Shown one piece after another: positions 1 to 47,225 of a DNA stretch of 64,000 nt. Below the pieces are notes generated by a model that had not been told where the DNA came from, made no database searches, and saw only the letters and a program-made list of their open reading frames with translations. Position 1 is the first letter of the stretch; each line of letters opens with the position of its first letter. The translations under genes were made by a program, and so were the position numbers. The stretch is from Candidatus Nomurabacteria bacterium RIFCSPHIGHO2_01_FULL_41_71 (GTDB taxonomy: Bacteria > Patescibacteriota > Minisyncoccia > Phycocordibacterales > UBA9973): positions 4,033-68,032 of the forward strand of contig MFTQ01000021.1 in NCBI GenBank assembly GCA_001785355.1. Direction: 5' to 3'.

Positions 1-1898
1 AAGTCCGAGAAGGTGAACCGTTTAGGAACAGAGAAGCGGTAATGTGTATTGTAAAACATTGGGGAAAAGATGAATATTTATGCCAAGAGTGGAAAGATTT
101 TTCAGGTGTTCGAACTCTTATATCTGGTGGTATAGAACCAGATGAAGATGTTGTTACCGCTGGCAAGCGTGAAATTTTAGAAGAGTCAGGTTTTTTGAAT
201 GCAAAGTTTATCAGGCAATTAGGTGGTTTTTCCTATGTAGAATTTTATCACCAAAGGAAGCAGACAAATATGCGAGCACGCTTCCGCTATCTTTATTTTG
301 AATTAGAAAATGGACAACGGGAAAAAATATCTGATAAAGAAAATAATCAACATCAATTTATCTGGAAAAAACAAAACGAAGTTGTGGATTTTTTAAACAT
401 TTCGGAAAAGGAAAGGATTTGGGAACTTTTTATTAATGGAAAAAAAGAAATTTTTACAGATGTTGGATATTTAGTAAATTCGGATAAGTTTGACGGTCTG
501 GATTCTAAAAAAGCAAAAAAAGAAATTGTAAAATTTATCGGTGCAAAGGAAAAAACAACCTTCAAACTTCGCGACTGGGTTTTTTCTAGGCAAAGGTACT
601 GGGGCGAGCCGATACCGCTCGTATTCTGTGAAAATTGTAGACGTCGGACGTCTCTGGAGACGTCCGACGTCTACAATGCGGGCTGGGTGCCAGTGCCGGA
701 TAAGGACTTGCCGGTTTTACTTCCCAAAGTAAAAACTTACAAGCCACGAGATGATGGCGAATCACCGCTCGCGGGGATGAAATCTTGGGTCAATGTGAAA
801 TGTCCGAAGTGTAAAGGTCCGGCCAGGAGGGAAACAGACACGATGCCGAATTGGGCAGGAAGCTCTTGGTATTTTTTGCGCTATACAGACCCAAAAAATA
901 AAAAAGAATTTGCATCACGGAAAAATCTGGAATATTGGACACCTGTGGATTGGTACAACGGGGGAATGGAGCACACTACTTTACACCTTTTATATTCTCG
1001 TTTTTGGCATAAATTTTTATATGATTTGAAGCTAGTGCCGACTATTGAGCCGTACGCGAAACGTACTTCGCATGGGATGATTTTGGCCGATGATGGGACA
1101 AAATTTTCAAAATCGAAAGGCAACGGAGTAGATCCGGATGATTTGGTAAAAACATACGGCGCAGACACTGTTCGTCTGTATGAAATGTTCATGGGGCCGT
1201 TTGATCAGGCGGTATCTTGGAGCACGGACAGCATGGTAGGACCGCGCAGATTTTTAGAGCGGGTGTGGCATATGTCAAGGACCGTCCTTGACAAACCTCA
1301 TCTCAGTCTTCTCCTGAAAGGAGAGGAGAAAGGGAACCCCTTCCCCTTTCAGGGGAAGGCGGGGGATGAGGTTGAACGCCTGTTGCATAAAACAATTAAG
1401 AAAGTATCGGAAGACATTGAAGCTATGCGTTTCAACACAGCAATTTCTACGCTCATGATTTTTGTGAATGAAATTGCTAAATTTGATTCTATCTCGCGGG
1501 ATGTTTACGAAAGATTTCTAAGGCTTCTGGCTCCGTTTGCTCCGCACATCACAGAAGAACTATGGAAAAATATTCACCTACCTCAAACCCCTTCCGAAGG
1601 AAGGGGCAGAACCGGGGCCAAATCTCTCTCCTTTGGGGAGGGCTCGGTAGAGGTGAAGTCAATTCATTTGAGTGAGTGGCCGAAATGGGACCCGAATTTG
1701 ATCAAAGACGAAGAGGCAAAGATTGTAATACAGGTAAACGGAAAAGTGAGAGCTGAAATTATGGTTAAGACAGACGAGGACGAAGAAACTATTAAACATC
1801 AAGTGTTGAATAGCGGGATTGTTTCTAAATACACCGTTGGCAAAGACCTCAAAAAAATGATTTATGTCAAGCACAGACTTATCAACATCGTGATTTAG
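1..1898 (+). CDS. leuS: Leucyl-tRNA synthetase, 5'-truncated by the window edge (frame open from nt 3). Unexpected Nudix-hydrolase box near the visible N-terminus
   Basis: LeuRS motifs: FKLRDWVFSRQRYWGEPIP, CENC...CPKC zinc knuckle, KFSKSK (KMSKS), GADTVRLY, anticodon-binding C-terminus. Nudix box GGIEPDEDVVTAGKREILEESGF at aa 29-51 of the visible frame. Several in-frame GC-rich palindromes. Confidence 0.85.
   Translation, partial: VREGEPFRNREAVMCIVKHWGKDEYLCQEWKDFSGVRTLISGGIEPDEDVVTAGKREILEESGFLNAKFIRQLGGFSYVEFYHQRKQTNMRARFRYLYFELENGQREKISDKENNQHQFIWKKQNEVVDFLNISEKERIWELFINGKKEIFTDVGYLVNSDKFDGLDSKKAKKEIVKFIGAKEKTTFKLRDWVFSRQRYWGEPIPLVFCENCRRRTSLETSDVYNAGWVPVPDKDLPVLLPKVKTYKPRDDGESPLAGMKSWVNVKCPKCKGPARRETDTMPNWAGSSWYFLRYTDPKNKKEFASRKNLEYWTPVDWYNGGMEHTTLHLLYSRFWHKFLYDLKLVPTIEPYAKRTSHGMILADDGTKFSKSKGNGVDPDDLVKTYGADTVRLYEMFMGPFDQAVSWSTDSMVGPRRFLERVWHMSRTVLDKPHLSLLLKGEEKGNPFPFQGKAGDEVERLLHKTIKKVSEDIEAMRFNTAISTLMIFVNEIAKFDSISRDVYERFLRLLAPFAPHITEELWKNIHLPQTPSEGRGRTGAKSLSFGEGSVEVKSIHLSEWPKWDPNLIKDEEAKIVIQVNGKVRAEIMVKTDEDEETIKHQVLNSGIVSKYTVGKDLKKMIYVKHRLINIVI
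637..674. repeat. 38-bp palindrome (18-bp arms, 2-nt centre) inside leuS, in-frame. Core GACGTCGGACGTC
   Basis: gtagacgtcggacgtctc-tg-gagacgtccgacgtctac read directly. Encodes extra RRRTSLETSDVY inside the LeuRS Zn knuckle. Confidence 0.9.
1274..1292. repeat. REP-like palindrome gtcaaggaccgtccttgac inside leuS. Same core as the REPs flanking the RAYT at 5764-6438
   Basis: Core aaggaccgtcctt shared with 5709-5737 and 6444-6472. Confidence 0.7.
1339..1359. repeat. GC-rich hairpin ccttcccct-ttc-aggggaagg inside leuS (in-frame)
   Basis: 9-bp perfect stem. One of a cluster of GC hairpins at 1296-1362 and 1588-1650 encoding low-complexity inserts. Confidence 0.7.
1588..1606. repeat. GC-rich hairpin ccccttcc-gaa-ggaagggg inside leuS (in-frame)
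   Basis: 8-bp perfect stem read directly. Confidence 0.7.
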
Positions 1899-3988: not shown

Positions 3989-5680
3989 ATGGAAAAGATT
4001 TTCAAGATTTTTGGCAAAGAGTACGAAAATATAAATCAAGCTGCTATTCTCCTGGGGGGTTTTGCTCTTCTCTCTCAGATATTGGGACTTCTTCGGGATC
4101 GTTTACTTGCGCATTTTGTCGGTCCTTCCGCTTCGCTTGATATTTATTATGCGGCTTTCAGGATTCCGGATCTTATCTTCATATCTATTGCATCTCTGGC
4201 CTCTATCACCGTCATTATACCGTTCTTGCAGGAAAAAATGTCTAGTCGTTCAGGCGATGCTTCGATGACGGAGGAGGCGCGAAAATTCCTGAATGATATT
4301 TTTTCGGTGTTTTTTTCGGTGATTATTCTGGTATCGATCTTTGTTTTTTTTCTTATGCCCTATCTTTCTTTTTTTATTGCGCCCGGTTTTACTCCGGAGA
4401 ATCAAGCGCGAGTGATAGAGCTTTCCCGCATTATGCTTCTTTCTCCCATTCTTTTGGGATTATCCAATCTTTTTGGCGCTATTACCCAGATGAATCGCAG
4501 ATTTTTTATTTATGCCCTAAGTCCCATTTTTTATAATCTGGGTATAATCGCCGGTATTTTGTTTTTATATTCTATTTTTGGTTTGCGGGGGCTTGCTTTT
4601 GGAGTGAGTTTGGGAGCTCTAATGCATTTTTTAATTCAAGCTTTTGCTTCTTTCAAATTTGGTTTTTTTCCAAAATTTTCAATTTCTATCAATTTTCAAG
4701 ATATCAGAAAGGCGGTTTTTATTTCCCTACCGAGAACATTGGGGCTATCTGCAAACAACATAGCGCTGATTTTCATTGTGGCTATGGCATCTTTTCTCAA
4801 AAGTGGCTCTATTTCGGTTTTTAATTTATCCTTTAATCTTCAGTCCGTTCCTCTCAATATTGTCGGTATATCCTACGCAGTAGCGGCTTTTCCCACCCTG
4901 GTTAAATCTTTTACTGGCGGGAAAAACAATGAATTTAAAGATCATTTAAAGAGGGCGGGCCGGGCTATTGTATTCTGGTCTATTCCTATCACTTTCATCT
5001 TTATCGTTGCGCGAGCGCAGATTGTGCGGGTGATTCTGGGCTCGCCTTCTTTTTCATGGGAGAATACCAGGCTGGTGGCCGCCTCTCTCGCTATTTTTTC
5101 CGTATCTATTCTGGCGCAGGGTATGGTCGCTCTTTTATCTCGGGCTCATTATGCCAAAGGCAATACCAGACGCCCGCTTGTGGTAAATCTGGTGTCGTCG
5201 ACGGTTATGATATTTTTATCTTATATTCTTTTAAGTTTATTCGAGTCTTGGCCGCTTTTCCGGCACTTTATAGAGTCTATTCTCAAGGTATCGGATATTC
5301 CAGGCACCGCAGTCTTAATGCTTCCGCTGGCTTATGCCCTGGGTACTATATTAAATTTCATCATTCATCTCTACTTTGCCAAGAAAGAGTTTATGGATGG
5401 AGAATCTTTCATATCGAAAACTTTCTTTCAGACACTGGGAGCTTCTTTTTTTATAGGAGTAATGGCGTATTTATCTCTGGGTGTTTTTTCCAATATTTTT
5501 GGCACTACCACCTTCTGGGGAATATTTCTTCAAGGGTTTTTCTCCGTTATATTGGGCATTCTTGCCGGAATAATGGTTTTGCGTTTGCTTGGGAATGAAG
5601 AACTGGAAGAGCTTTTCCGGACTTTCCGAACTAAATTCTGGCGCGCCCGTATTTTACCCCCTTCCCAAGAAGGGCTTTAA
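3989..5680 (+). CDS. murJ: Lipid II flippase MurJ/MviN
   Basis: N-terminal LLGGFALLSQILGLLRDRLLAHFVG...YYAAFRIPD signature; 14-TM architecture. Confidence 0.85.
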   Translation: MEKIFKIFGKEYENINQAAILLGGFALLSQILGLLRDRLLAHFVGPSASLDIYYAAFRIPDLIFISIASLASITVIIPFLQEKMSSRSGDASMTEEARKFLNDIFSVFFSVIILVSIFVFFLMPYLSFFIAPGFTPENQARVIELSRIMLLSPILLGLSNLFGAITQMNRRFFIYALSPIFYNLGIIAGILFLYSIFGLRGLAFGVSLGALMHFLIQAFASFKFGFFPKFSISINFQDIRKAVFISLPRTLGLSANNIALIFIVAMASFLKSGSISVFNLSFNLQSVPLNIVGISYAVAAFPTLVKSFTGGKNNEFKDHLKRAGRAIVFWSIPITFIFIVARAQIVRVILGSPSFSWENTRLVAASLAIFSVSILAQGMVALLSRAHYAKGNTRRPLVVNLVSSTVMIFLSYILLSLFESWPLFRHFIESILKVSDIPGTAVLMLPLAYALGTILNFIIHLYFAKKEFMDGESFISKTFFQTLGASFFIGVMAYLSLGVFSNIFGTTTFWGIFLQGFFSVILGILAGIMVLRLLGNEELEELFRTFRTKFWRARILPPSQEGL

Positions 5681-5708: not shown

Positions 5709-5737
5709 AATTAAGCAAGGACCGTCCTTGCTTAATT
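5709..5737. repeat. REP palindrome aattaagcaagga-ccg-tccttgcttaatt upstream of RAYT-1, preceded by partial copies (5681-5708)
   Basis: 13-bp arms read directly; inverted copy at 6444-6472 downstream of the gene. Confidence 0.85.
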
Positions 5738-5763: not shown

Positions 5764-6438
5764 ATGTTACGCAAGGATCCATTTATCACCGGCGAATATT
5801 ATCATCTTTATAATCGTGGTATAGATAAAAGAGTAATATTCAAATCAAAAAAAGACTACGAGCGATTTATCATGCTTTTATATATTGCGAATACACAAAC
5901 AGAATCTTTTCGTTTGGATAATTTAATAAATCAACAGCATAAAACATTTAACGAAATTCTGGTATTAGATAGGGGTGAATTAATCATTTCTATTGGTGCA
6001 TGGTCTCTCATGACAAATCATTTTCATTTAATAGTAAGACAAGAAATCGATGGAGGAATTACTAAATTTATGAGAAAATTGGGGACAGGATACTCTATGT
6101 TTTTTAATATTAAATACCAAAGAACAGGTGCCTTGTTTGGCGGATTATTCAAATCAAAATTAATTGGAGTTGATGATAATTATATGCGACAATTATTCGG
6201 ATATATTCATATTAATCCCTTGGAAATAAAATTTCCTGATTGGCAAAAGCAAATCAAAAAACCTTTTAGTGAGATGAAAAAATTTCTTAGATTATATAAG
6301 TATTCCAGTTATCCCGATTATATTGAAGAGGATAGAGTAGAAAAAAATATATTAAATGCCAAAAATTTTCCTAAGTATTTTAATAATGCAAAATCCTTTA
6401 AAGATTTTATGGATGAATATTTCATCGAAAATAATTAA
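5764..6438 (+). CDS. IS200-like/REP-associated tyrosine transposase (RAYT) paralog 1
   Basis: GEYYHLYNRG N-terminus, HxH motif NHFHLIV, Y1-transposase fold hallmarks; flanked by cognate REP hairpins. Confidence 0.75.
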   Translation: MLRKDPFITGEYYHLYNRGIDKRVIFKSKKDYERFIMLLYIANTQTESFRLDNLINQQHKTFNEILVLDRGELIISIGAWSLMTNHFHLIVRQEIDGGITKFMRKLGTGYSMFFNIKYQRTGALFGGLFKSKLIGVDDNYMRQLFGYIHINPLEIKFPDWQKQIKKPFSEMKKFLRLYKYSSYPDYIEEDRVEKNILNAKNFPKYFNNAKSFKDFMDEYFIENN

Positions 6439-6443
6439 GCAAA

Positions 6444-6472
6444 AATTAAGCAAGGACGGTCCTTGCTTAATT
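6444..6472. repeat. REP palindrome (same family as 5709-5737) downstream of RAYT-1
   Basis: aattaagcaaggacggtccttgcttaatt. Confidence 0.85.
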
Positions 6473-6540
6473 TAAAGAGGGGCTTTAAAATTGCGATTTT
6501 TATGGTATCATTTAGTTAAGTCCGCCATGCGGGCTGTTTT

Positions 6541-8305: not shown

Positions 8306-10165
8306 ATGACAGACTTAAAATACATTCGAAATTTTAGTATCATTGCGCATATAGACCACGGCAAGTCTACCTTAGCAGATCGGATGTTGGAAATCACCCA
8401 TACTATTGAAGCGCGAAAAATGCGCGATCAAATACTTGACTCTATGGAACTTGAGCGCGAGCGGGGAATCACCATCAAGATGCAACCTGTTCGCATGGAA
8501 TATACAAACTTAGTACTCGGAGTACTAAGACTTAGTACTCCGAGTACTAAGACTAAATATATCTTAAATCTGATAGATACCCCGGGGCATATTGATTTTT
8601 CTTACGAGGTTTCCAGAGCGCTCAAGGCCGTGGAAGGTTCTATTTTATTGGTGGATTGCACCCAAGGAGTGCAGGCTCAGACTCTTACTACCCTTACCAT
8701 GGCCAGGGAAGGCGGACTTCGTATTATTCCGGTACTTTCTAAGATTGATTCTCCGCTTGCTCGAATAGAGGAAGTGAAAGAAGAAGTTAAACAGCTTTTA
8801 GGTTGTGGTGATGAGGAAGTGCTTTTGGTTTCTGGTAAGACCGGAGAAGGAGTGGAAAATCTGCTTCGTGAAGTAATAAAGCGTGTGCCGACACCTCGAG
8901 AAGATTATTCAGGAGACAATGTTTTACGCGCTCTTGTTTTCGATTTTAAGTATTCTAATCACAAAGGGGTAATAGTATTTGTGCGTATTCTGGATGGGGA
9001 AGTGAAGAAAGGAGATAACCTTCTCTTTTTGGTATCGGGAGAAAAATTTTCTTCTCTTGAAGTCGGAGTATTTACTCCGGAAGAAGTTTCTGCTGAATCA
9101 CTTTCATCCGGAGAAGTGGGATATATAGTAACTGGTATCAAGAGGCCGGGTATTGCTTCTGTCGGAGATACGATTACCATGTCCAAGAATCCTCTGCCCA
9201 CTCTTCCGGGATACATGAAGGCTATGCCGGTAGTATGGGCTTCCGTTTTTCCTGAAGATGCGGATGATTTCATAGAGTTAAAATTATCCTTAGGTAAGCT
9301 GAAGCTGTCTGATTCCGCTTTTTCTTATGAAGAAGAATCAAGCGGTTCACTCGGCCGGGGTTTCCGATGTGGATTTCTCGGGATGCTTCATTTAGAGATA
9401 ATTACCGAGAGGCTAAAACGTGAATTTGGACTAGAGCTTGTTATTACTACCCCCTCCATCACTTATGAAGTGGTAAAAAAGTCCTTTATAGGACAAGCAG
9501 GCAAAAGGGAGAAAATTTATTCCCCATACTTTTTCCCGGATGATGGCAGTGTTGAATCCGTATATGAACCATGGGTAAAAGCGCAAATAATCAGCCCCGC
9601 CGGATATTTGGGCGGTATTATGCAGCTTTTGTTCGAGCATGAAGCGGAAGTGGGCGAGACGCATAATTTTGGAGATAACAGATCGTCTATCTTGGTGGAA
9701 ATGCCGCTTCGGGAATTAATGCGCAATTTTTTCGACGAATTAAAAAGTATTTCCTCCGGTTATGCATCTATTTCTTATAAGCTTGGAGAGATGCGGAAGG
9801 CGGATGTGACCAGACTGGATATTCTGGTGGCTGACGAAGTGGTACCGGCATTTTCCAGGGTTGTGTCGAAAAAAAGAGTGGAAGAGGAAGCGGAGAAGGC
9901 AGTGGAGAAATTATATGGCCTTCTTCCTCGACAGATGTTTACTCTGAAGATTCAGGGAAGGGCTCTGGGGCGAATTATTTCTTCCCGCACTATTTCCGGT
10001 ATGAAGAAGGATGTAACCGCGCACATGTATGGAGGCGATATCACTCGTAAGATGAAACTTAGAGAAAAGCAAAAAAAAGGCAAAAAGAAAATGAAAGAAC
10101 GTGGGCGAGTAAATATTCCCCAAGATGTGTTTCTTAAAATGATGCGGTCGGGCAGAATTAACTAA
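8306..10165 (+). CDS. lepA: Elongation factor 4 (LepA)
   Basis: NFSIIAHIDHGKSTLADR G1 motif, DTPGHIDF, LepA C-terminal domain. Start moved to MTDLKYIRNF. Confidence 0.9.
   Translation: MTDLKYIRNFSIIAHIDHGKSTLADRMLEITHTIEARKMRDQILDSMELERERGITIKMQPVRMEYTNLVLGVLRLSTPSTKTKYILNLIDTPGHIDFSYEVSRALKAVEGSILLVDCTQGVQAQTLTTLTMAREGGLRIIPVLSKIDSPLARIEEVKEEVKQLLGCGDEEVLLVSGKTGEGVENLLREVIKRVPTPREDYSGDNVLRALVFDFKYSNHKGVIVFVRILDGEVKKGDNLLFLVSGEKFSSLEVGVFTPEEVSAESLSSGEVGYIVTGIKRPGIASVGDTITMSKNPLPTLPGYMKAMPVVWASVFPEDADDFIELKLSLGKLKLSDSAFSYEEESSGSLGRGFRCGFLGMLHLEIITERLKREFGLELVITTPSITYEVVKKSFIGQAGKREKIYSPYFFPDDGSVESVYEPWVKAQIISPAGYLGGIMQLLFEHEAEVGETHNFGDNRSSILVEMPLRELMRNFFDELKSISSGYASISYKLGEMRKADVTRLDILVADEVVPAFSRVVSKKRVEEEAEKAVEKLYGLLPRQMFTLKIQGRALGRIISSRTISGMKKDVTAHMYGGDITRKMKLREKQKKGKKKMKERGRVNIPQDVFLKMMRSGRIN
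8509..8551. repeat. 43-bp palindrome (two 21-bp AGTACT-containing units that are reverse complements of each other) inserted in-frame in lepA
   Basis: cttagtactcggagtactaag-a-cttagtactccgagtactaag. Adds ~14 aa (VLGVLRLSTPSTKT) between G1 and DTPGH. Confidence 0.85.
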
Positions 10166-10701: not shown

Positions 10702-12318
10702 TTACACTATGCAAAAGCGGGATTGGTTTAGTGGTAGAATGCGACCTTCCCAAGGTTGAGACAGGAGTTCGATTCTCCTATCCCGCACCATAAACGAACT
10801 AGACGGTTTTTTAGAAGCTGAAATGCGGGACGCGCGAAGCGCGTCCCAAGGATTCCCGCCGAATTTCCCAAACGAATTCAGAATTTTTGGCGCGCTGGCG
10901 CGCACTAATTTTTCGCCAAGAAGCAGGTTCGAGCCAAAGATTTCTTTGGCACAGACCTTTTTCGCAAAAAGGTCTGTATCCTGTGCGATTCCATTCAGGT
11001 TTTGTGCGACTTTTAGCCAATCGAGTAGCGGTTCGAGCCAATCATTGTGCTTGTGTGAAAGAGAGGTCATTTCTTCTTCGAGCGACTTCTTTTGCAAAAT
11101 CAATTTTGCTTTTTCTACACGATAGGTTTCCTTTTCAATATCTTGGTCAAGGTAAGTATTCAGAAGTCGCTCTAACTTTTGTGAAATGACAGATATTTTG
11201 GTTTCTTTCTCTTTCACACTAGCACCCACGGATTGGGCGGAGTTTTTGAAATCAGCTCGTGCCATTTTTTCCAGTTCCTCCGCCCAATCTCGTGGCAAAG
11301 AAACTTTTTGAATTAGGGATGATAACTGGCGATTAAGTTCTTCTTCCCGAATACAAGGTTGAGAACATTTTACATTTTTGTTTTTCTTTGTGCAGTGATA
11401 ATAAGTGTAATTATGCACATTTCCGTTCTTCTGCTTCTTAACCTTGTATTCGCCAGTTATCATCATTCCACATTCGGTGCAAGATAATAACCCGCAAAAT
11501 GGTTGAGGTTCATTTTTAGATTTTCGTTCGGGTTGTCCGCGGAGTTTCATCACTTTTTGCACCGAATCAAAAAGTTTCTTTGAAATGATTGGCTCGTGCT
11601 TGCCTTCGTGCAATTCTCCCGCATAGTTGAAAAGTCCAGTATAAAAAGGGTTTGAAAGAATAAAAGTCGCACGAGTTTTGTGGATTCTCTTTCCACCTCT
11701 CGAAACGATTCCGTTTTTCGCCAAAAAGTTTGAAATATCTTCCAGTCGTTGATTTCCTTTCGCGTATCTCTCAAAAGCCAAGCGGATAATTTTCGCTTTC
11801 TTCTTTTCCACTACAATCGTTTTTGTTCTACTGTCGTTGATATATCCCAAAGGAGCTTGGCTTGGAAATATTCCCATTCTCACTTTTTGGCGAAGACCTC
11901 GTTTCGTATTTTCTGAAAGAGAATCCACATAGTATTTGCTTTGGACAAATGCCATAGAGAGTGAAAATTTCCCTTGCGGAGTATTCTCAAACCAGTGCGA
12001 AGGGAATTTCATGCTCGCAAGTTTTCCGATGTCGAGTAAGTAGATAATTTGTCCGCCATCCACCGAATTACGGGCTAGACGATCGGGATGCCAACTGACG
12101 ATACCATTTGCCTCACCTCGTTCAATGCGCTTCAGCATTTGCCCGAAAATAGGTCTGCCGGGAATTTTCGCAGATTGTTTTTCGATAAATTCCTCAATGA
12201 CCTCTAAGTTTTGCTCTCGGGCAAATGCCCGCAATTCGGTGAGTTGAGCGTCAATACTCAAAACTTGTTTGTCTTCGACATCGGTGCTCTTGCGAGCATA
12301 CAAAAAGAATTTTTGCAT
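10702..12318 (-). CDS. Large serine recombinase (resolvase/invertase catalytic domain + recombinase domain + Zn-ribbon). 3' end reads antisense through IR-A and tRNA-Gly
   Basis: YARKSTDVEDKQVLSIDAQ catalytic-Ser motif at N-terminus, CTECG...CTKKNKNVKC zinc ribbon, coiled-coil. True stop uncertain because the ORF runs through a GC-rich repeat. Confidence 0.85.
   Translation of the reverse strand: MQKFFLYARKSTDVEDKQVLSIDAQLTELRAFAREQNLEVIEEFIEKQSAKIPGRPIFGQMLKRIERGEANGIVSWHPDRLARNSVDGGQIIYLLDIGKLASMKFPSHWFENTPQGKFSLSMAFVQSKYYVDSLSENTKRGLRQKVRMGIFPSQAPLGYINDSRTKTIVVEKKKAKIIRLAFERYAKGNQRLEDISNFLAKNGIVSRGGKRIHKTRATFILSNPFYTGLFNYAGELHEGKHEPIISKKLFDSVQKVMKLRGQPERKSKNEPQPFCGLLSCTECGMMITGEYKVKKQKNGNVHNYTYYHCTKKNKNVKCSQPCIREEELNRQLSSLIQKVSLPRDWAEELEKMARADFKNSAQSVGASVKEKETKISVISQKLERLLNTYLDQDIEKETYRVEKAKLILQKKSLEEEMTSLSHKHNDWLEPLLDWLKVAQNLNGIAQDTDLFAKKVCAKEIFGSNLLLGEKLVRASAPKILNSFGKFGGNPWDALRASRISASKKPSSSFMVRDRRIELLSQPWEGRILPLNQSRFCIV
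10717..10790 (+). tRNA. tRNA-Gly (anticodon CCC), CCA encoded
   Basis: Cloverleaf folded by hand: acceptor GCGGGAT/ATCCCGC, anticodon loop TTCCCAA, T-arm AGGAG-TTCGATT-CTCCT. Confidence 0.85.
10785..10878. repeat. IR-A: 94-bp perfect inverted repeat, begins in the tRNA-Gly 3' end. Partner at 12545-12638
   Basis: Reverse complement of 10785-10878 equals 12545-12638 base for base. Similarity continues imperfectly ~55 bp further (10879-10935 vs 12481-12544). Confidence 0.9.
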
Positions 12319-12336
12319 ATATTTTTCTTAAAGCGA

Positions 12337-12393
12337 AAATGGCTATTTTAGGTTGAAATCCTAACGTTAGTTAGAAAACTAAAATAGCCATTT
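12337..12393. promoter_or_regulatory. 57-bp perfectly symmetric site (15-bp arms + central 10-bp palindrome ctaacgttag with CG centre) 19 bp upstream of the recombinase start. Candidate recombination site or operator
   Basis: aaatggctattttag-gttgaaatc-ctaacgttag-ttagaaaa-ctaaaatagccattt read directly. Confidence 0.4.
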
Positions 12394-12544
12394 CCGCCAA
12401 CTAACTGATAATGGATTTCAACACAGTTAGTATAGCAAAAATTCTTTTTGTATCCAAAGCAAATACTTTGAATTTGTATCGCACGGGATTTCGAACCTGC
12501 TTCTTGGCGAAAAAACAGTGCGCATCGCCGAAGGCGGTGCTCCA

Positions 12545-12638
12545 AATTCGTTTGGGAAATTCGGCGGGAATCCTTGGGACGCGCTTCGCGCGTCCCGCAT
12601 TTCAGCTTCTAAAAAACCGTCTAGTTCGTTTATGGTGC
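12545..12638. repeat. IR-A': inverted partner of IR-A, contains inverted copy of tRNA-Gly 3' end (ggtgc)
   Basis: See IR-A. Confidence 0.9.
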
Positions 12639-12958
12639 GTTTATTCTACCAAATCAGAACCTATTTTCAAAATCTGTAATCAATGGAGTTCCCCGCGCGC
12701 TACGCGCCTCTGTGCAAAGCACAGAGCTTTCCAAAGTGGAAAGTGCGGGGAACGCAACATCTCCGAACGGCTCAAATGCCAGTAAGTGAGCCGTTCAGTA
12801 AAATGGACGAAGTTTTGCAAAAACTATTTTCTGGGGAAAGGATTTTGCAAAACTTCGGCTAGTGTTTTTGAAATTCGGCGGGCATGCAAATTCCCCGCGC
12901 GGAGGAGGGGTCTGGGGAGGAATCCGCGCGGGCTTTGGATTTTGTTGGGCGGATGGGC
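12635..12958. repeat. IR-B: 324-bp perfect inverted repeat, GC-rich. Partner at 14801-15124
   Basis: Reverse complement equals 14801-15124. Generates identical 57-aa phantom N-termini on ORFs 12786 (+) and 14973 (-). Confidence 0.9.
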
Positions 12959-13010
12959 CACCTTTACTTTTTTAATCAAAAAATCTAGTATATTTTATGG
13001 AGGTGTTGAA

Positions 13011-13397
13011 TTGAAGACTTTCCTGAAGAAAGTCCTGCGATTCAGCATCGCAGGAGGTACCGGAGTTCTCAGCGGCTACGTGGCCCTGTATTCCCTCACC
13101 GAGTTTGTTGGGTGGTGGTATATATGGTCAGCTTTTGTGGCCTTCGTTCTTAACACTGGAGTGACTTTTTACCTCCAGAGGTTCTGGACGTTCAAAAACG
13201 AGAGCCTCAAACCTTTCAGCCCGAAGCAGTTTATCATGTACTCGATGATGACAGCTAGCTTCGTTGGCTCGAATATCATACTGCTTTACCTCTTAGTGGA
13301 GTACGTACATCTCCACTACATGGTAGCGCAGGTGTGTCTGACGGCTCTTTTTTCGGTGTTTAGCTTCGTGCTGACACCTAAGATCTTCACTCGCTAG
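13011..13397 (+). CDS. GtrA-family small membrane protein (polyprenol-sugar flippase-like). TTG start after ggaggtg RBS
   Basis: ~128 aa, 4 TM, FSIAGGTGVLSGY...LNTGVTFYLQRFWTF typical of GtrA family. Upstream part of the 203-aa ORF lies in IR-B and is not credited. Confidence 0.6.
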   Translation: MKTFLKKVLRFSIAGGTGVLSGYVALYSLTEFVGWWYIWSAFVAFVLNTGVTFYLQRFWTFKNESLKPFSPKQFIMYSMMTASFVGSNIILLYLLVEYVHLHYMVAQVCLTALFSVFSFVLTPKIFTR

Positions 13398-13477
13398 AAT
13401 CGGCGTGCTCCGCAAGGACACGCCGATCGCTACTTCTAATAGAAAAAATACTCCAAAAATGATAAAATGAACTAGCT

Positions 13478-14131
13478 ATGGACTCAGAAACTCAAAGACA
13501 ACAAATTGGTAATTCCCTGAAAATAACCACAGAAATTTTTGGAAGTTGTAATGCGGATTACCGAATTCTTGGTTCTGTTTTGTTGGTTGCATATACCAAT
13601 AGAGTTTTTAGACGCATAAATGATGTTGATATTCTCCTAGATATAAAAACTAAAGATTGTGTATTCGAAAAACTAAAAAACAATGGTTTCCAATTTGAGC
13701 CAAAAAAAGTGGCTGGATTTTCTTGGATTGAAGCAAAAAAAGATCAACACTTAGGACTAACCTTTTTTCTTGTTGGTGAATTCAGAAAAGAGTATTTTAC
13801 TTGGCGTTTTATGAAATTTTTTGAACTAAGAATACGAGCTGAATATTTACATCCAACTGAATATAATTTTGAAAATGTAAAATTTATTGGCATTCCCATT
13901 TCGTCTGCTATTGCTGGGATTAGACAATCATTTCTTAATCCGAAAAGAAAAATGGATAAGCAAATTTTAGAAAATGAAGTCAATAAATCTAAAGTAAAAA
14001 TTTACAATAATATTTCTGTTTATATTTTTGGTGTAAAGCTTCCATATTTGTATGATTCATTTTCTTTTCTTTACAATATTTATGGCGGGATACGAGTTAT
14101 GTTTGGTAAAAAGTATGAGGCTTGGGATTAA
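13478..14131 (+). CDS. Pol-beta-superfamily nucleotidyltransferase-like protein
   Basis: ILGSVLLVAY...x10...DVDILLD matches the GS-x(9-13)-DxD NTase motif. No further family assignment possible by eye. Confidence 0.4.
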   Translation: MDSETQRQQIGNSLKITTEIFGSCNADYRILGSVLLVAYTNRVFRRINDVDILLDIKTKDCVFEKLKNNGFQFEPKKVAGFSWIEAKKDQHLGLTFFLVGEFRKEYFTWRFMKFFELRIRAEYLHPTEYNFENVKFIGIPISSAIAGIRQSFLNPKRKMDKQILENEVNKSKVKIYNNISVYIFGVKLPYLYDSFSFLYNIYGGIRVMFGKKYEAWD

Positions 14132-14138
14132 ATAATTT

Positions 14139-14747
14139 ATGATTACATGGATAATAATTTGGTTATTTTTTTGGACTAGCGCATTAGGTTTTACTAACTA
14201 TCTTTTTAAAAAACATGGGATTACTTATTACGAAAAATCTTGGCAACACACTATTTTTTTTATAATCCTCACACTAATCCTTTTTGTTGTTTATCAAAAT
14301 CAGTTTTTCGTATATTTTAATAATTTTTCCCTATATCATTTATTGATTATCCTGCTCTTATTTATACTGTGGCTTTCTGTCCCAACTCTTTATAAAAATG
14401 ATTATTATGCCAAAAAAGAAAGGTTTGGTTATCAGTTGCCAAAATTTTTTGAAATATTTTTCCAAGACATTTGCTTTTTAGGTGGCTTACTGACCTTTGG
14501 GATTTCTCCGACAATGTTTGGTTTGGTGTTTTTCGTCGTTCATATTCCAGCAGTATTTCTCCTTCCTAAAAAATTTGCCCTCCTGCCTATATTTGGTTCA
14601 CTTTTTGGAGGGCTAATTTTGGCCCATTTACAATCTCAAGGGATAATAGGATTTTTAGTCACATTATTTATACATTTATCATTTTGGGCTACTCTACACT
14701 ATGCTCTACAGAAAAATATTTTAGGCATTACTCCATTAAAAAGATAA
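14139..14747 (+). CDS. Polytopic membrane protein, unknown function (cargo of the IR-B cassette)
   Basis: 6-7 hydrophobic helices; very AT-rich relative to the flanking repeats. Confidence 0.4.
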   Translation: MITWIIIWLFFWTSALGFTNYLFKKHGITYYEKSWQHTIFFIILTLILFVVYQNQFFVYFNNFSLYHLLIILLLFILWLSVPTLYKNDYYAKKERFGYQLPKFFEIFFQDICFLGGLLTFGISPTMFGLVFFVVHIPAVFLLPKKFALLPIFGSLFGGLILAHLQSQGIIGFLVTLFIHLSFWATLHYALQKNILGITPLKR

Positions 14748-14800
14748 TATTTGTATCTCGGCTTTGCCGAGATTTCAATATTTGAATTTGATTTCTTAAT

Positions 14801-15124
14801 GCCCATCCGCCCAACAAAATCCAAAGCCCGCGCGGATTCCTCCCCAGACCCCTCCTCCGCGCGGGGAATTTGCATGCCCGCCGAATTTCAAAAACACTAG
14901 CCGAAGTTTTGCAAAATCCTTTCCCCAGAAAATAGTTTTTGCAAAACTTCGTCCATTTTACTGAACGGCTCACTTACTGGCATTTGAGCCGTTCGGAGAT
15001 GTTGCGTTCCCCGCACTTTCCACTTTGGAAAGCTCTGTGCTTTGCACAGAGGCGCGTAGCGCGCGGGGAACTCCATTGATTACAGATTTTGAAAATAGGT
15101 TCTGATTTGGTAGAATAAACGCAC
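14801..15124. repeat. IR-B': inverted partner of IR-B
   Basis: See IR-B. Confidence 0.9.
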
Positions 15125-34858: not shown

Positions 34859-34960
34859 GGCTACACAAGACCGCGACAATTCCTTTCGGAACTGCCCTGC
34901 ACCCTTTCGGGCACAGACCACGCGAGTAGGCGGCTTGTGTAGCCGTTTTTACCCGCGTGG
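34859..34960 (+). ncRNA. Candidate structured RNA / cis-regulatory leader: GC-rich nested and alternative hairpins in an AT-rich intergenic region (strand not established)
   Basis: 11-bp stem ggctacacaag...cttgtgtagcc enclosing two UUCG-type hairpins. Competing ccacgcg...cgcgtgg stem followed by T-rich run; a second cgcgtggttttt copy at 34814. Confidence 0.25.
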
Positions 34961-35158
34961 ATTTATTTTCACCATGCCATTTTACCGGTTTAGGTGTTGT
35001 AATTTCATAGTAGCTCTTTTTTGACCTAAAAACAACACAACTTGCATACTAAATTTGGTATGCTACAATTAAAGTAATTGAATATGGAATGATAGATCGG
35101 CCACATGGTTTAATTGCAAGTTTTGCAGTTAAGTCGGCCGTTTTTTTATTTAATATAC

Positions 35159-40713: not shown

Positions 40714-40797
40714 ATTTTCTTGATAAAATTAATCCGATTGGTATGTCGGGCTTGTATATGGGCATACTACCACTAGTCCGAAAAAAAGCAAACCCCA

Positions 40798-40818
40798 CTT
40801 GGAGGCAAGACCTCCAAG
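40798..40818. repeat. REP hairpin cttggagg-CAAGA-cctccaag (family cognate to RAYT-2), plus adjacent half-copy
   Basis: Copies also at 41272-41293 (inside RAYT-2 ORF) and 41496-41516. Confidence 0.85.
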
Positions 40819-40835
40819 TTCCCTCCAAGTTCGAA

Positions 40836-41480
40836 TTAATCAAATTCAAAGTTTTTGACCTCTTCCTTTCTATTACATGTAGTTTTCCAAGTTTCTAGTG
40901 CAAATTTCTCGTATTCTTTTTTGGATTTGAATTGGCCAAGAATCATAGATTTTTCACAAAAATTGATATTACTAGATTGGGTATATTCTATCCAACTTGA
41001 CATGTTTAACGATTTTTTAATTACCCCATTTTTGTCATAGTTGTTTAAATTTATATAAGCGCCAACTTGAAGTAAATACTCATTTGAATTTATGTGTTTA
41101 CTTTTAAATTTTCCCTGAAAGAGTGAACCCGATCTCTTATTTCTTTCGTTAAAATACATAGTGTAACCAGTTCCAAGTCGTTGCATAAATTTTTCCACTC
41201 CTTTTTCCACAAGGGGAGTGAGAAGAAAGTGATAATGATTAGGATTCAAACAGTAAGTTACAAATCTTACCAACTTGGAGGTCTTGCCTCCAAGTTGCTT
41301 TTCTTTTACAAAACTATTCTCATACAAACTACCAATGGGATTTTTAGTATTAAATTCTTTCATACTTTGAAAAAATCTTCCCAAATCTTTTTTATCGGAA
41401 AATATATTTCTTTTATCTACGCCCCTATTATAAATATGATAATACTCTCCTGGCAGGAAGGCCATTTTTCTCATAGACAT
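40836..41480 (-). CDS. IS200-like/RAYT-type tyrosine transposase paralog 2, inserted between ftsA and ftsZ
   Basis: GEYYHIYNRG, HYHFLLTP HxH motif. One REP copy inside the ORF encodes KQLGGKTSKLV in-frame. Confidence 0.7.
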   Translation of the reverse strand: MSMRKMAFLPGEYYHIYNRGVDKRNIFSDKKDLGRFFQSMKEFNTKNPIGSLYENSFVKEKQLGGKTSKLVRFVTYCLNPNHYHFLLTPLVEKGVEKFMQRLGTGYTMYFNERNKRSGSLFQGKFKSKHINSNEYLLQVGAYINLNNYDKNGVIKKSLNMSSWIEYTQSSNINFCEKSMILGQFKSKKEYEKFALETWKTTCNRKEEVKNFEFD

Positions 41481-41495
41481 ACCTAAATTATAGCA

Positions 41496-41516
41496 CTTGG
41501 AGGCAAGACCTCCAAG
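41496..41516. repeat. REP hairpin (RAYT-2 family) upstream of RAYT-2
   Basis: cttggaggcaagacctccaag. Confidence 0.85.
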
Positions 41517-41520
41517 TGGA

Positions 41521-46141: not shown

Positions 46142-46163
46142 TTGCCAAAGCAAGGCTTTGGCA
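46142..46163. repeat. REP hairpin ttgccaaag-CAAGG-ctttggcaa (family cognate to RAYT-3)
   Basis: Copies at 46453-46478 (inside the RAYT-3 ORF) and 46881-46913 (14-bp arms). Confidence 0.85.
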
Positions 46164-46177
46164 GTAAACATGAGTGT

Positions 46178-46873
46178 ATGTCTATTCGAAAAATTCCATT
46201 TGTCCAGAGGGAGTTTTACCATATTTTTAGCAGGGGTAATAGTAAACAAGATATATTTTTAGATGATAAAGACAGGGAGCGTTTTACTCAGTTGCTGTAT
46301 CTTTGTAACTCTACAAAGAATGTGAATTACAGGGAAAATATTGTTAGGACTAATATAATCGCATGGGAGTTTGATAGGGGAGAAACAATTATTGCAATAG
46401 GCGCATGGGTTTTGATGTCTAATCATTTTCATCTCTATGTAACCCCAAAAAAGTTGCCAAAGCAAGGCTTTGGCAACTTTGAGAATAGCCTTACGGCATT
46501 CATGCATAAACTTCTTACTTCATATTCAAAATATTTTAATAAAAAATACAATAGAACAGGTAGTTTGTTTGAAAGTAAATTCAAATCTGTTCACATCAAG
46601 AGTGATCCTCAGGCGAAATATAATTTTTCATATATTCATTTGAATCCGATAAAATTAATTGACCGTAAATGGCGTGAGAATGGAATTAAGGATTTTAAAA
46701 AAGCTAAAAAGTTTTTGAAAGACTATAAATGGTCAAGTTATTTGGATTATAAAGGTGTCATTCGTCCGGAAAATAAGATTTTAGACAGAAAAAATTTTCT
46801 GGATTATTTTCAAAATATAAAGGATTTTGATTCTGAAATTCTTGAATGGCTTAAATTTGGGGAAGAAGAATAA
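46178..46873 (+). CDS. IS200-like/RAYT-type tyrosine transposase paralog 3
   Basis: REFYHIFSRG, SNHFHLYVTP. Internal REP encodes KKLPKQGFGNFE in-frame directly after the HxH motif. Start moved to MSIRK. Confidence 0.7.
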   Translation: MSIRKIPFVQREFYHIFSRGNSKQDIFLDDKDRERFTQLLYLCNSTKNVNYRENIVRTNIIAWEFDRGETIIAIGAWVLMSNHFHLYVTPKKLPKQGFGNFENSLTAFMHKLLTSYSKYFNKKYNRTGSLFESKFKSVHIKSDPQAKYNFSYIHLNPIKLIDRKWRENGIKDFKKAKKFLKDYKWSSYLDYKGVIRPENKILDRKNFLDYFQNIKDFDSEILEWLKFGEEE

Positions 46874-46880
46874 GGAATTA

Positions 46881-46913
46881 CCAAATTGCCAAAGCAAGGC
46901 TTTGGCAATTTGG
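46881..46913. repeat. REP hairpin (RAYT-3 family), extended 14-bp arms
   Basis: ccaaattgccaaag-caagg-ctttggcaatttgg. Confidence 0.85.
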
Positions 46914-46914
46914 T

Positions 46915-47225
46915 AAAAAAGACAAATAAATATGCCTCGAAAGTCGAAGACTTCGAGGCGCTTTTGGGCGATTGGAATCAATCGCCCGATTTGTACCGTG
47001 GGCCGGAAACTCTTTGCCTCGCCCGCGTCAAGAACGGGGCAAAAAGACCTTTCGCCGGACCTTGCACTCCGGCTCCCCCGGCTCCACGGTATTTTCGATA
47101 TTAACACAGATTTTTTCTTGATTAAAAAGTTATCCACACCCTTCGTTTGCAAGGGTTTCACGCCGTGGTTTATAATGCGTATCAAGTGGGAAAAAGTGGG
47201 AAAAATGGGGATAAGTAATTTTTAG
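46915..47225. other. GC-rich hairpin-dense non-coding region upstream of mraZ (candidate structured RNA or leader)
   Basis: Perfect 8-bp hairpins gcctcgaa...ttcgaggc and ggcgattg-gaat-caatcgcc; GC content far above the local average; gtgggaaaaa direct repeat. Confidence 0.2.

Follow-up and report, generated by a model that had tools for sequence, protein, structure and literature searches.

A candidate REPIN-like hairpin doublet in frame in the elongation factor 4 gene of a Nomurabacteria bacterium

Introduction

How does a perfect 43-bp palindrome come to lie in frame in lepA, the gene for elongation factor 4 (EF4), of a streamlined bacterium, without breaking the gene? The locus is in a 64,000-nucleotide stretch of DNA (the window) from Candidatus Nomurabacteria bacterium RIFCSPHIGHO2_01_FULL_41_71, a member of the Patescibacteria or candidate phyla radiation (CPR); coordinates are those of the window unless preceded by the identifier of another locus (L001 and so on). 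The first-pass annotation of this DNA described two 21-bp units at 8509-8551, reverse complements of each other, which were said to add about 14 residues to LepA between the G1 P-loop and DTPGH and to be of a different family from GC-rich elements. It proposed an alignment of LepA orthologues, in which the same residues encoded by non-repetitive DNA would speak against the claim, a search for the 21-mer and a test for hairpin formation.

Repetitive extragenic palindromes (REPs) and REP-associated tyrosine transposases (RAYTs) offer a possible framework. RAYT genes flanked by inverted REPs define the REP/RAYT system (PMC2817692). Intragenic REPs, mostly dimers encoding 20-30 aa, occur in several bacteria, including in tRNA synthetase genes, and have been equated with some Rickettsia palindromic elements; the classical REP hairpin has an unpaired GTAG or CGTC tag at one end (PMC3733652). 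Here we report that the lepA palindrome is real, that it is an insertion relative to the orthologues, that its unit is dispersed, and that the same genome has RAYT-like transposases with cognate palindromes. We propose, with a probability that we put at about 0.62, that it is a REP/REPIN-like hairpin doublet (REPIN, inverted REP doublet forming a hairpin), spread by a RAYT-type transposase and lodged in a permissive EF4 loop.

Results

Symmetry and folding of the lepA palindrome

The coordinates and mutual complementarity given by the first-pass annotation are exact (Table 1). The symmetry is nested: each 21-mer is palindromic by itself (10+1+10), and the two units with the A between them form a perfect palindrome (21+1+21), with AGTACT lying within a 21-mer within a 43-mer. 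The consensus of the unit over 23 nt is ACTTAGTACTC-S-GAGTACTAAGT; with arms of 10-11 bp, the 21-23-nt unit is a short palindrome capable of forming a stem-loop, as in REP/REPIN sequences. In 100 dinucleotide-preserving shuffles the 21-mer was never matched, even with three mismatches allowed. Computed folding is strong both as single-stranded DNA (-20.7 kcal/mol, z = -8.9) and, in a 101-nt context, as RNA (-36.4 kcal/mol, z = -8.0, with a 20-bp stem), no shuffle being as stable in either case. The Rfam matches at the palindrome were far sub-threshold, miRNA-like hairpins, with no known RNA family among them.

All four AGTACT sites of the window are within the palindrome. Once the element is masked, no 6-bp palindrome in the window is more depleted than AGTACT: there are 0 copies, whereas base composition predicts 20.6 and a maximal-order Markov model 3.1. 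This scarcity outside the element reflects a roughly four-fold depletion of GTAC (54 observed versus 230 expected), which suggests pressure from a GTAC-specific restriction system. TGTACA, like AGTACT, is absent from the window outside the palindrome.

The palindrome is an in-frame insertion in a genuine lepA gene

The host protein is a full-length LepA equivalog match (TIGR01393, 742.9 bits versus a cut-off of 533.9, residues 6-614), with the Pfam domains GTP_EFTU, D2, EFG_C and LepA_C. It was compared with 119 orthologues, making a set of 120 proteins. The loop from ERERGITIK to DTPGH has 20 residues (MQPVRMEY-xxxGxK-YILNLI) in 75 of the 120 and 32 in the window protein, a net gain of 12 aa (36 nt) over the modal loop. 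None of the 119 orthologues has the LVLGVLRLSTPSTK residues, and in the closest relative, which is 85% identical and syntenic, the place is taken by plain, non-repetitive ATA GTA GAT GGT GAA AAG, i.e. an empty site; the outcome that the first-pass annotation had named as speaking against its claim is thus not what the orthologues give. Alignment to solved chains of Thermus thermophilus EF4 (5imq, 4w2e), on which the structural placement rests, leaves a gap of 11 residues at the turn of the hairpin TYRAKDGEEYVF; the AlphaFold model has a mean pLDDT (predicted local distance difference test score) of 57, and below 50 across residues 1-111.

These comparisons identify the element, at the level of sequence, as an in-frame insertion at the predicted tip of the hairpin that joins switch I (GITIK) to G3 (DTPGH) in the G domain. 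The proposal of an in-frame palindromic insert that leaves the gene unbroken therefore holds, with two refinements: the gain is 12 residues relative to the modal orthologue loop, or 11 relative to T. thermophilus EF4, rather than about 14, and its site, which does precede DTPGH, is more precisely between G2/switch I and G3 than between the P-loop and G3.

The EF4 protein is 100% identical to that of Candidatus Nomurabacteria bacterium RIFCSPHIGHO2_02_FULL_41_18, and its sequence recurs unchanged in the translations of at least 22 contigs from varied samples and assemblers (MEGAHIT k141 contigs, 'ANAN16-1' scaffolds, JGI). The loop DNA is the same in all seven loci read, including those of strains differing elsewhere. 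The sampled strains are near-identical, with 1 SNP (single-nucleotide polymorphism) in lepA, and those with the palindrome include ones lacking or rearranging a 4.3-kb segment just downstream of lepA. Since the independently assembled contigs, the identical loop DNA and the variation of the strains elsewhere concur, the palindrome is real DNA and an artefact is excluded.

The unit is open in two frames, reading L-S-T-(P/R)-S-T-K and L-V-L-(G/R)-V-L, and TAG and TAA block the third. Because the doublet has a period of 22 nt, one of its three phases is stop-free; this is the phase observed, LVLGVL then LSTPSTK, with a predicted translation extending the loop by 12 residues (..TN-LVLGVLRLSTPSTK-TK..). 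The observed phase is the expected residue of selection on random insertions into a needed gene. All the intragenic hairpin copies that we describe, i.e. those in the genes for EF4, leucyl-tRNA synthetase (LeuRS), MiaA, RAYT-B and RAYT-C, are in frame and stop-free, which, as judged from their reading frames, argues for plain translation.

Copies of the AGTACT unit at other loci and in other species

A single exact copy of the 21-mer is present in the GTDB species set; it is part of a 35-bp palindrome located between two convergent genes in another Nomurabacteria metagenome-assembled genome (MAG; Ike-100m-33). Scanning metagenomes for the 19-nt core yielded 13 loci, eight of which (six distinct sites) extend to (C)ACTTAGTACTC-S-GAGTACTAAGT(G). 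The unit is thus not unique to lepA: beyond it there are six unit-bearing sites, in at least two further Nomurabacteria species (Table 1). L019 and L020 are on one 84-kb contig, the proteins of which are those of another Candidatus Nomurabacteria species known from four MAGs. Homologous proteins encoded in L001, L014 and L020 are about 45-52% identical to those of the window genome, so that base-perfect identity over 23-25 nt is not accounted for by neutral vertical inheritance. The unit is a dispersed repeat and not a local oddity. In the flanks of the AGTACT units, neither a target-site duplication nor a common target motif was identified, and no copies of the core were found in viral contigs.

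Several other matches were not accepted as members of the family. L015, L016 and L021 have another centre base, or a GC content of 0.59, without the family flanks and are probable chance matches; the palindromes in L012 and L013 also lack the family flanks and were not assigned. L022 (~505-570) and L023 (~5365-5430) are rolling-circle plasmids (Rep_1) sharing a palindrome with 21-bp arms, four AGTACT sites and the 19-nt core; this is probably an unrelated element having the same core, and may be a plasmid origin hairpin. The palindrome region of L022 had nothing similar in the plasmid collection.

RAYT-like transposases and their cognate palindromes

A survey of the window for perfect palindromes and their positions reveals three RAYT-like genes, each bordered at distances of 5-27 bp by a palindrome family of its own (REP-A, REP-B and REP-C; Table 1), with RAYT-B and RAYT-C also having an internal in-frame copy. 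RAYT-B lies about 32 kb from the lepA palindrome. The three proteins are 34-44% identical to each other, with the HUH motif (NHFHL/NHYHF) and the Tyr residue invariant, and give weak matches to Pfam Y1_Tnp and to the NCBIfam REP-associated tyrosine transposase. The top PDB match of the predicted RAYT-A structure (pLDDT 78.6) is 4er8 (E 1e-4, prob 1.00), i.e. the Escherichia coli RAYT TnpA-REP bound to a REP hairpin, with IS608 and ISDra2 TnpA among the next matches; a phmmer search of PDB sequences with RAYT-B was uninformative.

The REP-A copies flanking RAYT-A are inverted with respect to their centre base, and the same core, GCAAGRAC-S-GTYCTTGC, borders the RAYT-A orthologues of two other genomes. 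The RAYT-A family has more than 7,300 database members, many of them 72-79% identical to RAYT-A, and those with source names are annotated as Paceibacterota-, Parcubacteria- or Nomurabacteria-type CPR; in this it resembles the vertically inherited, domesticated RAYTs of the literature. The three RAYT-like HUH/Y1 genes lie within 64 kb of a very small genome; RAYT-A is absent from a syntenic relative (L009).

Every ACTT-N15-AAGT hairpin found spans exactly 23 nt, whether of the AGTACT type, one of the three REP-B copies or a variant in L034 or L035; the window has four such hairpins versus 0.16 in shuffles.

Table 1. Locations of the lepA element, its relatives and the RAYT-like genes
Feature	Location	Strand	Description
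lepA / EF4, host gene	8306-10165	+	TIGR01393; insert at hairpin tip between GITIK and DTPGH
Unit 1, AGTACT-type hairpin repeat	8509-8529	.	CTTAGTACTCGGAGTACTAAG; centre G; in-frame translation LVLGVL
Unit 2	8531-8551	.	CTTAGTACTCCGAGTACTAAG; centre C; exact reverse complement of unit 1; in-frame LSTPSTK
Whole palindrome, REPIN-like doublet	8509-8551	.	43 bp, perfect; 22-nt period; centre A at 8530
AGTACT unit copy	L018/L020		Between atpA and atpG
AGTACT unit copy	L019/L024 (L019 3285-3307)		Inside miaA
AGTACT unit copy	L014		Between two tandem genes
AGTACT unit copies, two	L017		148 bp apart, centres C then G; between convergent genes
RAYT-A	5764-6438	+	RAYT-like gene; predicted fold closest to TnpA-REP (4er8); own palindromes REP-A
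REP-A upstream of RAYT-A	5709-5737	.	Centre C
REP-A downstream of RAYT-A	6443-6473	.	Centre G, inverted
RAYT-B	40836-41480	-	RAYT-like HUH/Y1 transposase; PF01797, 31 bits; NHYH and YINLN motifs; flanked by REP-B
REP-B copy	40797-40819	.	ACTTGGAGGCAAGACCTCCAAGT; 23 nt; length and ACTT...AAGT stem base as in AGTACT unit
REP-B copy inside RAYT-B	41273-41295	.	In frame, QLGGKTSKL
REP-B copy upstream of RAYT-B	41495-41517	.	
RAYT-C, third paralogue	46178-46873	+	REP-C at 46142-46164, 46450-46480 (internal, in frame) and 46878-46916
REP-A-core copy	1273-1293	.	CAAGGACCGTCCTTG; inside LeuRS reading frame
GACGTC double palindrome	634-677	.	ATTGTAGACGTCGGACGTCTC TG GAGACGTCCGACGTCTACAAT; 44 bp; four GACGTC; unit centres G then C; in LeuRS
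MiaA site	L035 3063-3085		AACTTGGCG-ACCGAAC-CGCCAAGTT
MiaA site	L034 2048-2070		ACTTGGCGGTT-A-AACCGCCAAGT
MiaA site	L019 3285-3307		AGTACT type
MiaA site	L033		Imperfect hybrid: AGTACT-type left arm, REP-B right arm CCTCCAAGT

A possible connection of the AGTACT type with REP-B at the MiaA site

Each of the MiaA orthologues examined has, at one codon-aligned site, a 23-nt hairpin in which the stem base ACTT(G/A)G..C(C/T)AAGT is kept and the interior varies, at constant protein length (Table 1); the residues run through the series NLATEPPS, HLAVKPPS, HLVLRPPS and HLVLGVLS. The MiaA copy was considered as a second in-frame insertion, which is ruled out by its being length-neutral relative to the orthologues. 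Because length and stem base are kept, the hairpin interior at this site has been replaced or has co-varied. Many of the inspected RAYT-B-like representatives likewise keep QLG..(S/P/A)KL around a variable middle. Taken together, the MiaA and RAYT-B patterns suggest, as sequence patterns, conversion or RAYT-mediated exchange between hairpins, beyond simple insertion. The shared 23-nt length and stem base, together with the MiaA-site variants, would connect the AGTACT type indirectly to RAYT-B.

A sister doublet in LeuRS and the EF4 loop as an insertion hotspot

The LeuRS gene of the window has a GACGTC double palindrome, the architecture of which matches that of the lepA element. Relative to four syntenic orthologues it is a clean 14-aa in-frame insertion, CENC-RRRTSLETSDVYNA-GWVPVP; its start reads GTAG-ACGTC. 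GC-rich hairpin inserts are translated in the C-terminal part of the same protein, at 1293-1373 (-50.5 kcal/mol; KPHLSLLLKGEEKGNPFPFQGKAGDEV) and 1575-1661 (-37.7 kcal/mol; HLPQTPSEGRGRT..SLSFGEGSVEV), the latter region having no counterpart in any of the four orthologues. The first-pass annotation probably meant these inserts by its GC-rich elements. Its view that the lepA palindrome is of a different family stands at the sequence level; the elements nonetheless belong to the same class of in-frame hairpin inserts, the lepA element having a GACGTC twin in LeuRS and a length and stem base in common with REP-B. As a separate observation, a NUDIX hydrolase domain lies inside LeuRS (42 to ~400, the open reading frame (ORF) running off the left end of the window); it is also found in L026 and L027 and is absent from L025 and L028.

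The EF4 loop is longer than 20 aa in 45 of the 120 proteins, with many unrelated sequences, and the loops of relatives examined as DNA (four of four) are strongly hairpin-forming or repeat-rich. In L025 (8172-8309) four tandem CAATTTC copies are combined with inverted AT-rich repeats, in L026 (8172-8279) nested GC-rich hairpins encode PSPWQGEGGQRPGEV, and in L028 (8172-8282) there is a palindrome with a 23-bp stem, CCCCGAAACCAGGTTTAGGGG-GAATT-CCCCTAAACCTGGTTTCGGGG (-55.9 kcal/mol). The LepA homologue P0119 (L036 487-2769) has a 160-aa PD-(D/E)XK ORF (PDDEXK_3, PF13366) in frame in this same loop, bounded by a 12-bp inverted repeat, AACGCAGACTGA / TCAGTCTGCGTT. The hairpin-tip loop of EF4 is thus a hotspot, i.e. 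a highly permissive insertion site.

Other features near lepA and in the window

The strain-variable 4.3-kb segment (10789-15119) starts within the last bases of tRNA-Gly(ccc) (10717-10790) and has a serine recombinase gene (10702-12318, minus strand), the 3' end of which runs across the tRNA gene. Strain L002 lacks the segment and L003/L004 have it partly inverted; it is probably an integrative element. Directly upstream of, and overlapping, lepA in L031 (15349-16176) and L032 (15349-16080) is a gene with a faint LAGLIDADG_3 match (Parcubacteria GW2011_GWD1_44_9). A LOOT RNA (Rfam RF03000) is present in the window at 34875-34996 on the minus strand, with 66 bits, above the gathering score.

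Discussion

According to the reading that we favour, the 43-bp palindrome would be an inverted, REPIN-like doublet of a 22/23-nt REP-type unit, ACTTAGTACTC-S-GAGTACTAAGT, that is one member of a superfamily of 23-nt palindromic repeats, 'ACTT...AAGT', in Nomurabacteria-type CPR bacteria. The doublet would have inserted in lepA at the tip of the switch I-G3 hairpin, a loop tolerant of extra residues, and could have persisted in being in the one stop-free phase of three and in adding a multiple of three bases, with no function for EF4. Spread of the unit by a RAYT-type HUH transposase, acting on it as a single-stranded DNA hairpin, is likely; the RAYT-B lineage would be the most plausible source of the enzyme because REP-B has the same length and stem base.

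A number of observations weigh against this proposal, the main gap being that no RAYT flanked by the AGTACT type was found. A tblastn search with the three RAYT-like proteins gave no match in the 14 AGTACT-bearing loci, and the translated units (LVLGVL, LVLRVL, LSTPSTK and LSTRSTK) are in none of 120 RAYT-A/C-like homologues and 150 RAYT-B-like representatives. The RAYT-like proteins themselves are divergent, with NF047646 scores of 24-36 bits versus a cut-off of 80, and a partial NP(L/V)(R/K)xG motif (NPLEIK, NPIKLI; NP is absent in RAYT-B). Unlike a classical REP, the AGTACT unit is a perfect palindrome with one unpaired centre base (C or G), ends in (C)ACTTAG and has no GTAG/CGTC tag. The 64 kb of the window have one AGTACT locus, of two units, and thus do not show a high copy number in this genome. 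The net gain of lepA is 36 nt versus 43-45 nt for the palindrome, so that the insertion junctions cannot be fixed exactly, and simple insertion does not explain the length-neutral MiaA unit, the 8-aa segment concerned being of the same length in 94 of the 96 parsed orthologues.

The last of these points is at the heart of an alternative in which the palindromes arise or are maintained locally, by intrastrand template switching, hairpin-primed repair or gene conversion among ACTT...AAGT hairpins in which the interior is overwritten, without insertion by a transposase. The MiaA series from NLATEPPS to HLVLGVLS, encoded in each case by a 23-nt hairpin that differs in its interior but not in its stem base, would be accommodated by it, as would the RAYT-B-like representatives with QLG..SKL around a variable middle, the nested structure of the lepA element and the fact that no cognate RAYT was found. 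A purely local origin, however, cannot yield base-identical 23-25-mers at seven unrelated sites in genomes with only ~45-52% identical homologous proteins, and the lepA element is a net gain of 36 nt relative to a non-palindromic empty site. Even conversion between copies would presuppose a dispersed family and differs from transposase-mediated spread in the enzyme alone; overall, we regard local origin as unlikely. Somewhat more doubtful still is the notion that the 23-nt ACTT...AAGT hairpins are fixed 'cassette' sites, the interiors of which are overwritten in place by RAYT-mediated strand exchange or conversion between copies. If this were true, transposase-driven replacement would recode protein loops while keeping their length and stem base, even in essential genes (MiaA, the RAYT gene and, after doubling, EF4).

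It is also improbable that the lepA element has been selected for a function, for example to adjust EF4 levels through an mRNA structure at which ribosomes slow down or RNase III cuts, or to serve as a binding site in DNA for a protein specific to AGTACT repeats. Its perfect symmetry, with no decay in any strain, its very stable 20-bp RNA stem, the presence of four GTAC/AGTACT sites in a genome strongly avoiding GTAC, and the occurrence of the unit at operon and 3' positions, like classical REPs affecting mRNA, are all consistent with function. Yet the element is conserved in no orthologue, related lineages having unrelated inserts or none in the same loop, and with strains this similar its symmetry may just reflect a young insert; neither a match to a known RNA family nor a candidate binding protein was identified. 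A restriction-modification link, i.e. a cluster of ScaI/RsaI-type sites serving as a decoy or methylation-dependent switch or marking repair at a restriction cut, appears very improbable: the concentration of all AGTACT sites here, the depletion of GTAC and the construction of the LeuRS twin from four GACGTC (AatII-type) sites point towards it, but GACGTC is not depleted in the window (3 observed versus 2.2 expected from a Markov model), REP-A, REP-B and REP-C are not built from repeated 6-bp restriction-type palindromes, no restriction-modification gene was linked to the element, and a repeat family accounts better for a dispersed 23-nt unit in which the stem base is conserved. Perfect palindromes are a classic fold-back product, but an assembly, chimera or amplification artefact has a negligible probability given the number and diversity of the contigs, the identical loop DNA, the in-frame, stop-free state, the presence of the palindrome in strains differing by a SNP and the 4.3-kb indel, and the occurrence of the unit in other genomes.

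The system that we favour as a model is REP/REPIN-RAYT, as described in E. coli, Pseudomonas and Stenotrophomonas (PMC2817692, PMC3116915, PMC3733652; 4er8), which shares with the elements described here short palindromes and inverted doublets that fold into a longer hairpin. The centres of the doublets follow such an inversion, being G then C in lepA and LeuRS, and C then G in L017 and in the flanks of RAYT-A; REP-B and REP-C also flank their genes, the inversion of the flanks being shown for REP-A. As in REP/RAYT systems, family-specific palindromes flank single HUH/Y1 genes, with three sets in the window, and gene and palindrome are conserved together across genomes; the AGTACT copies between convergent or same-direction genes and the in-frame intragenic dimers are also REP-like. 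The differences are that the lepA units abut with 1 nt between them, versus typically tens of nucleotides in REPINs, that the copy number seen is low, that no cognate RAYT was found for the AGTACT type and that the host is a CPR bacterium.

With TnpA of the IS200/IS605 insertion sequences (IS608, ISDra2) the RAYT-like proteins share the HUH/Y1 fold, as judged from the predicted RAYT-A structure. TnpA enzymes act on hairpins in single-stranded DNA without producing a target-site duplication, with which the flanks of the AGTACT units are compatible. Unlike in IS200/IS605, a TnpB partner is absent and the AGTACT units have no IS-like structure around them; the RAYT-like genes in the window, being single, conserved at about the level of housekeeping genes across genomes (72-79% identity) and flanked by short palindromes, fit RAYTs better than active insertion sequences.

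The Rickettsia palindromic elements (RPEs), in a study by Ogata and colleagues from 2000, are reportedly selfish palindromic repeats that keep the frame of the protein-coding genes in which they lie. RPE-1, with a length of about 100-150 bp, encodes 30-50 aa, and we know of no transposase for it. Like RPEs, the elements here are in-frame palindromic repeats in conserved, often essential genes of a reduced-genome bacterium, with predicted extra surface-loop residues and an intact protein. Unlike RPEs, the lepA element is 43 bp (12 aa net), of another lineage and sequence, and has RAYT-like genes nearby; the resemblance, judged by description, is functional only, and we do not class the element as an RPE. 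Coding inserts bypassed by the ribosome, as in T4 gene 60 and the mitochondrial 'byps', interrupt the frame and are skipped; they too are short, hairpin-forming and inside coding sequence, whereas the copies here are in frame and stop-free.

In a limited literature search, neither REP/RAYT systems nor in-frame palindromic inserts turned up for CPR bacteria; the sole paper found to mention both RAYT and CPR concerns a RAYT gene in an archaeal (Pacearchaeales) genome. In-frame palindromic inserts are best known from Rickettsia, and the interest of the lepA element rests on its host lineage and on the length-neutral replacement at MiaA. Our results indicate that streamlined CPR/Patescibacteria genomes carry REP/RAYT-like hairpin repeats, lodged in frame in core translation genes (EF4, LeuRS and MiaA). 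Where the loops of LepA and other CPR marker proteins vary in length, the source can thus be selfish DNA rather than adaptation, which matters for alignments and phylogenies, and the length-neutral MiaA copies provide a testable handle on how RAYT-type enzymes may reshape hairpins in place.

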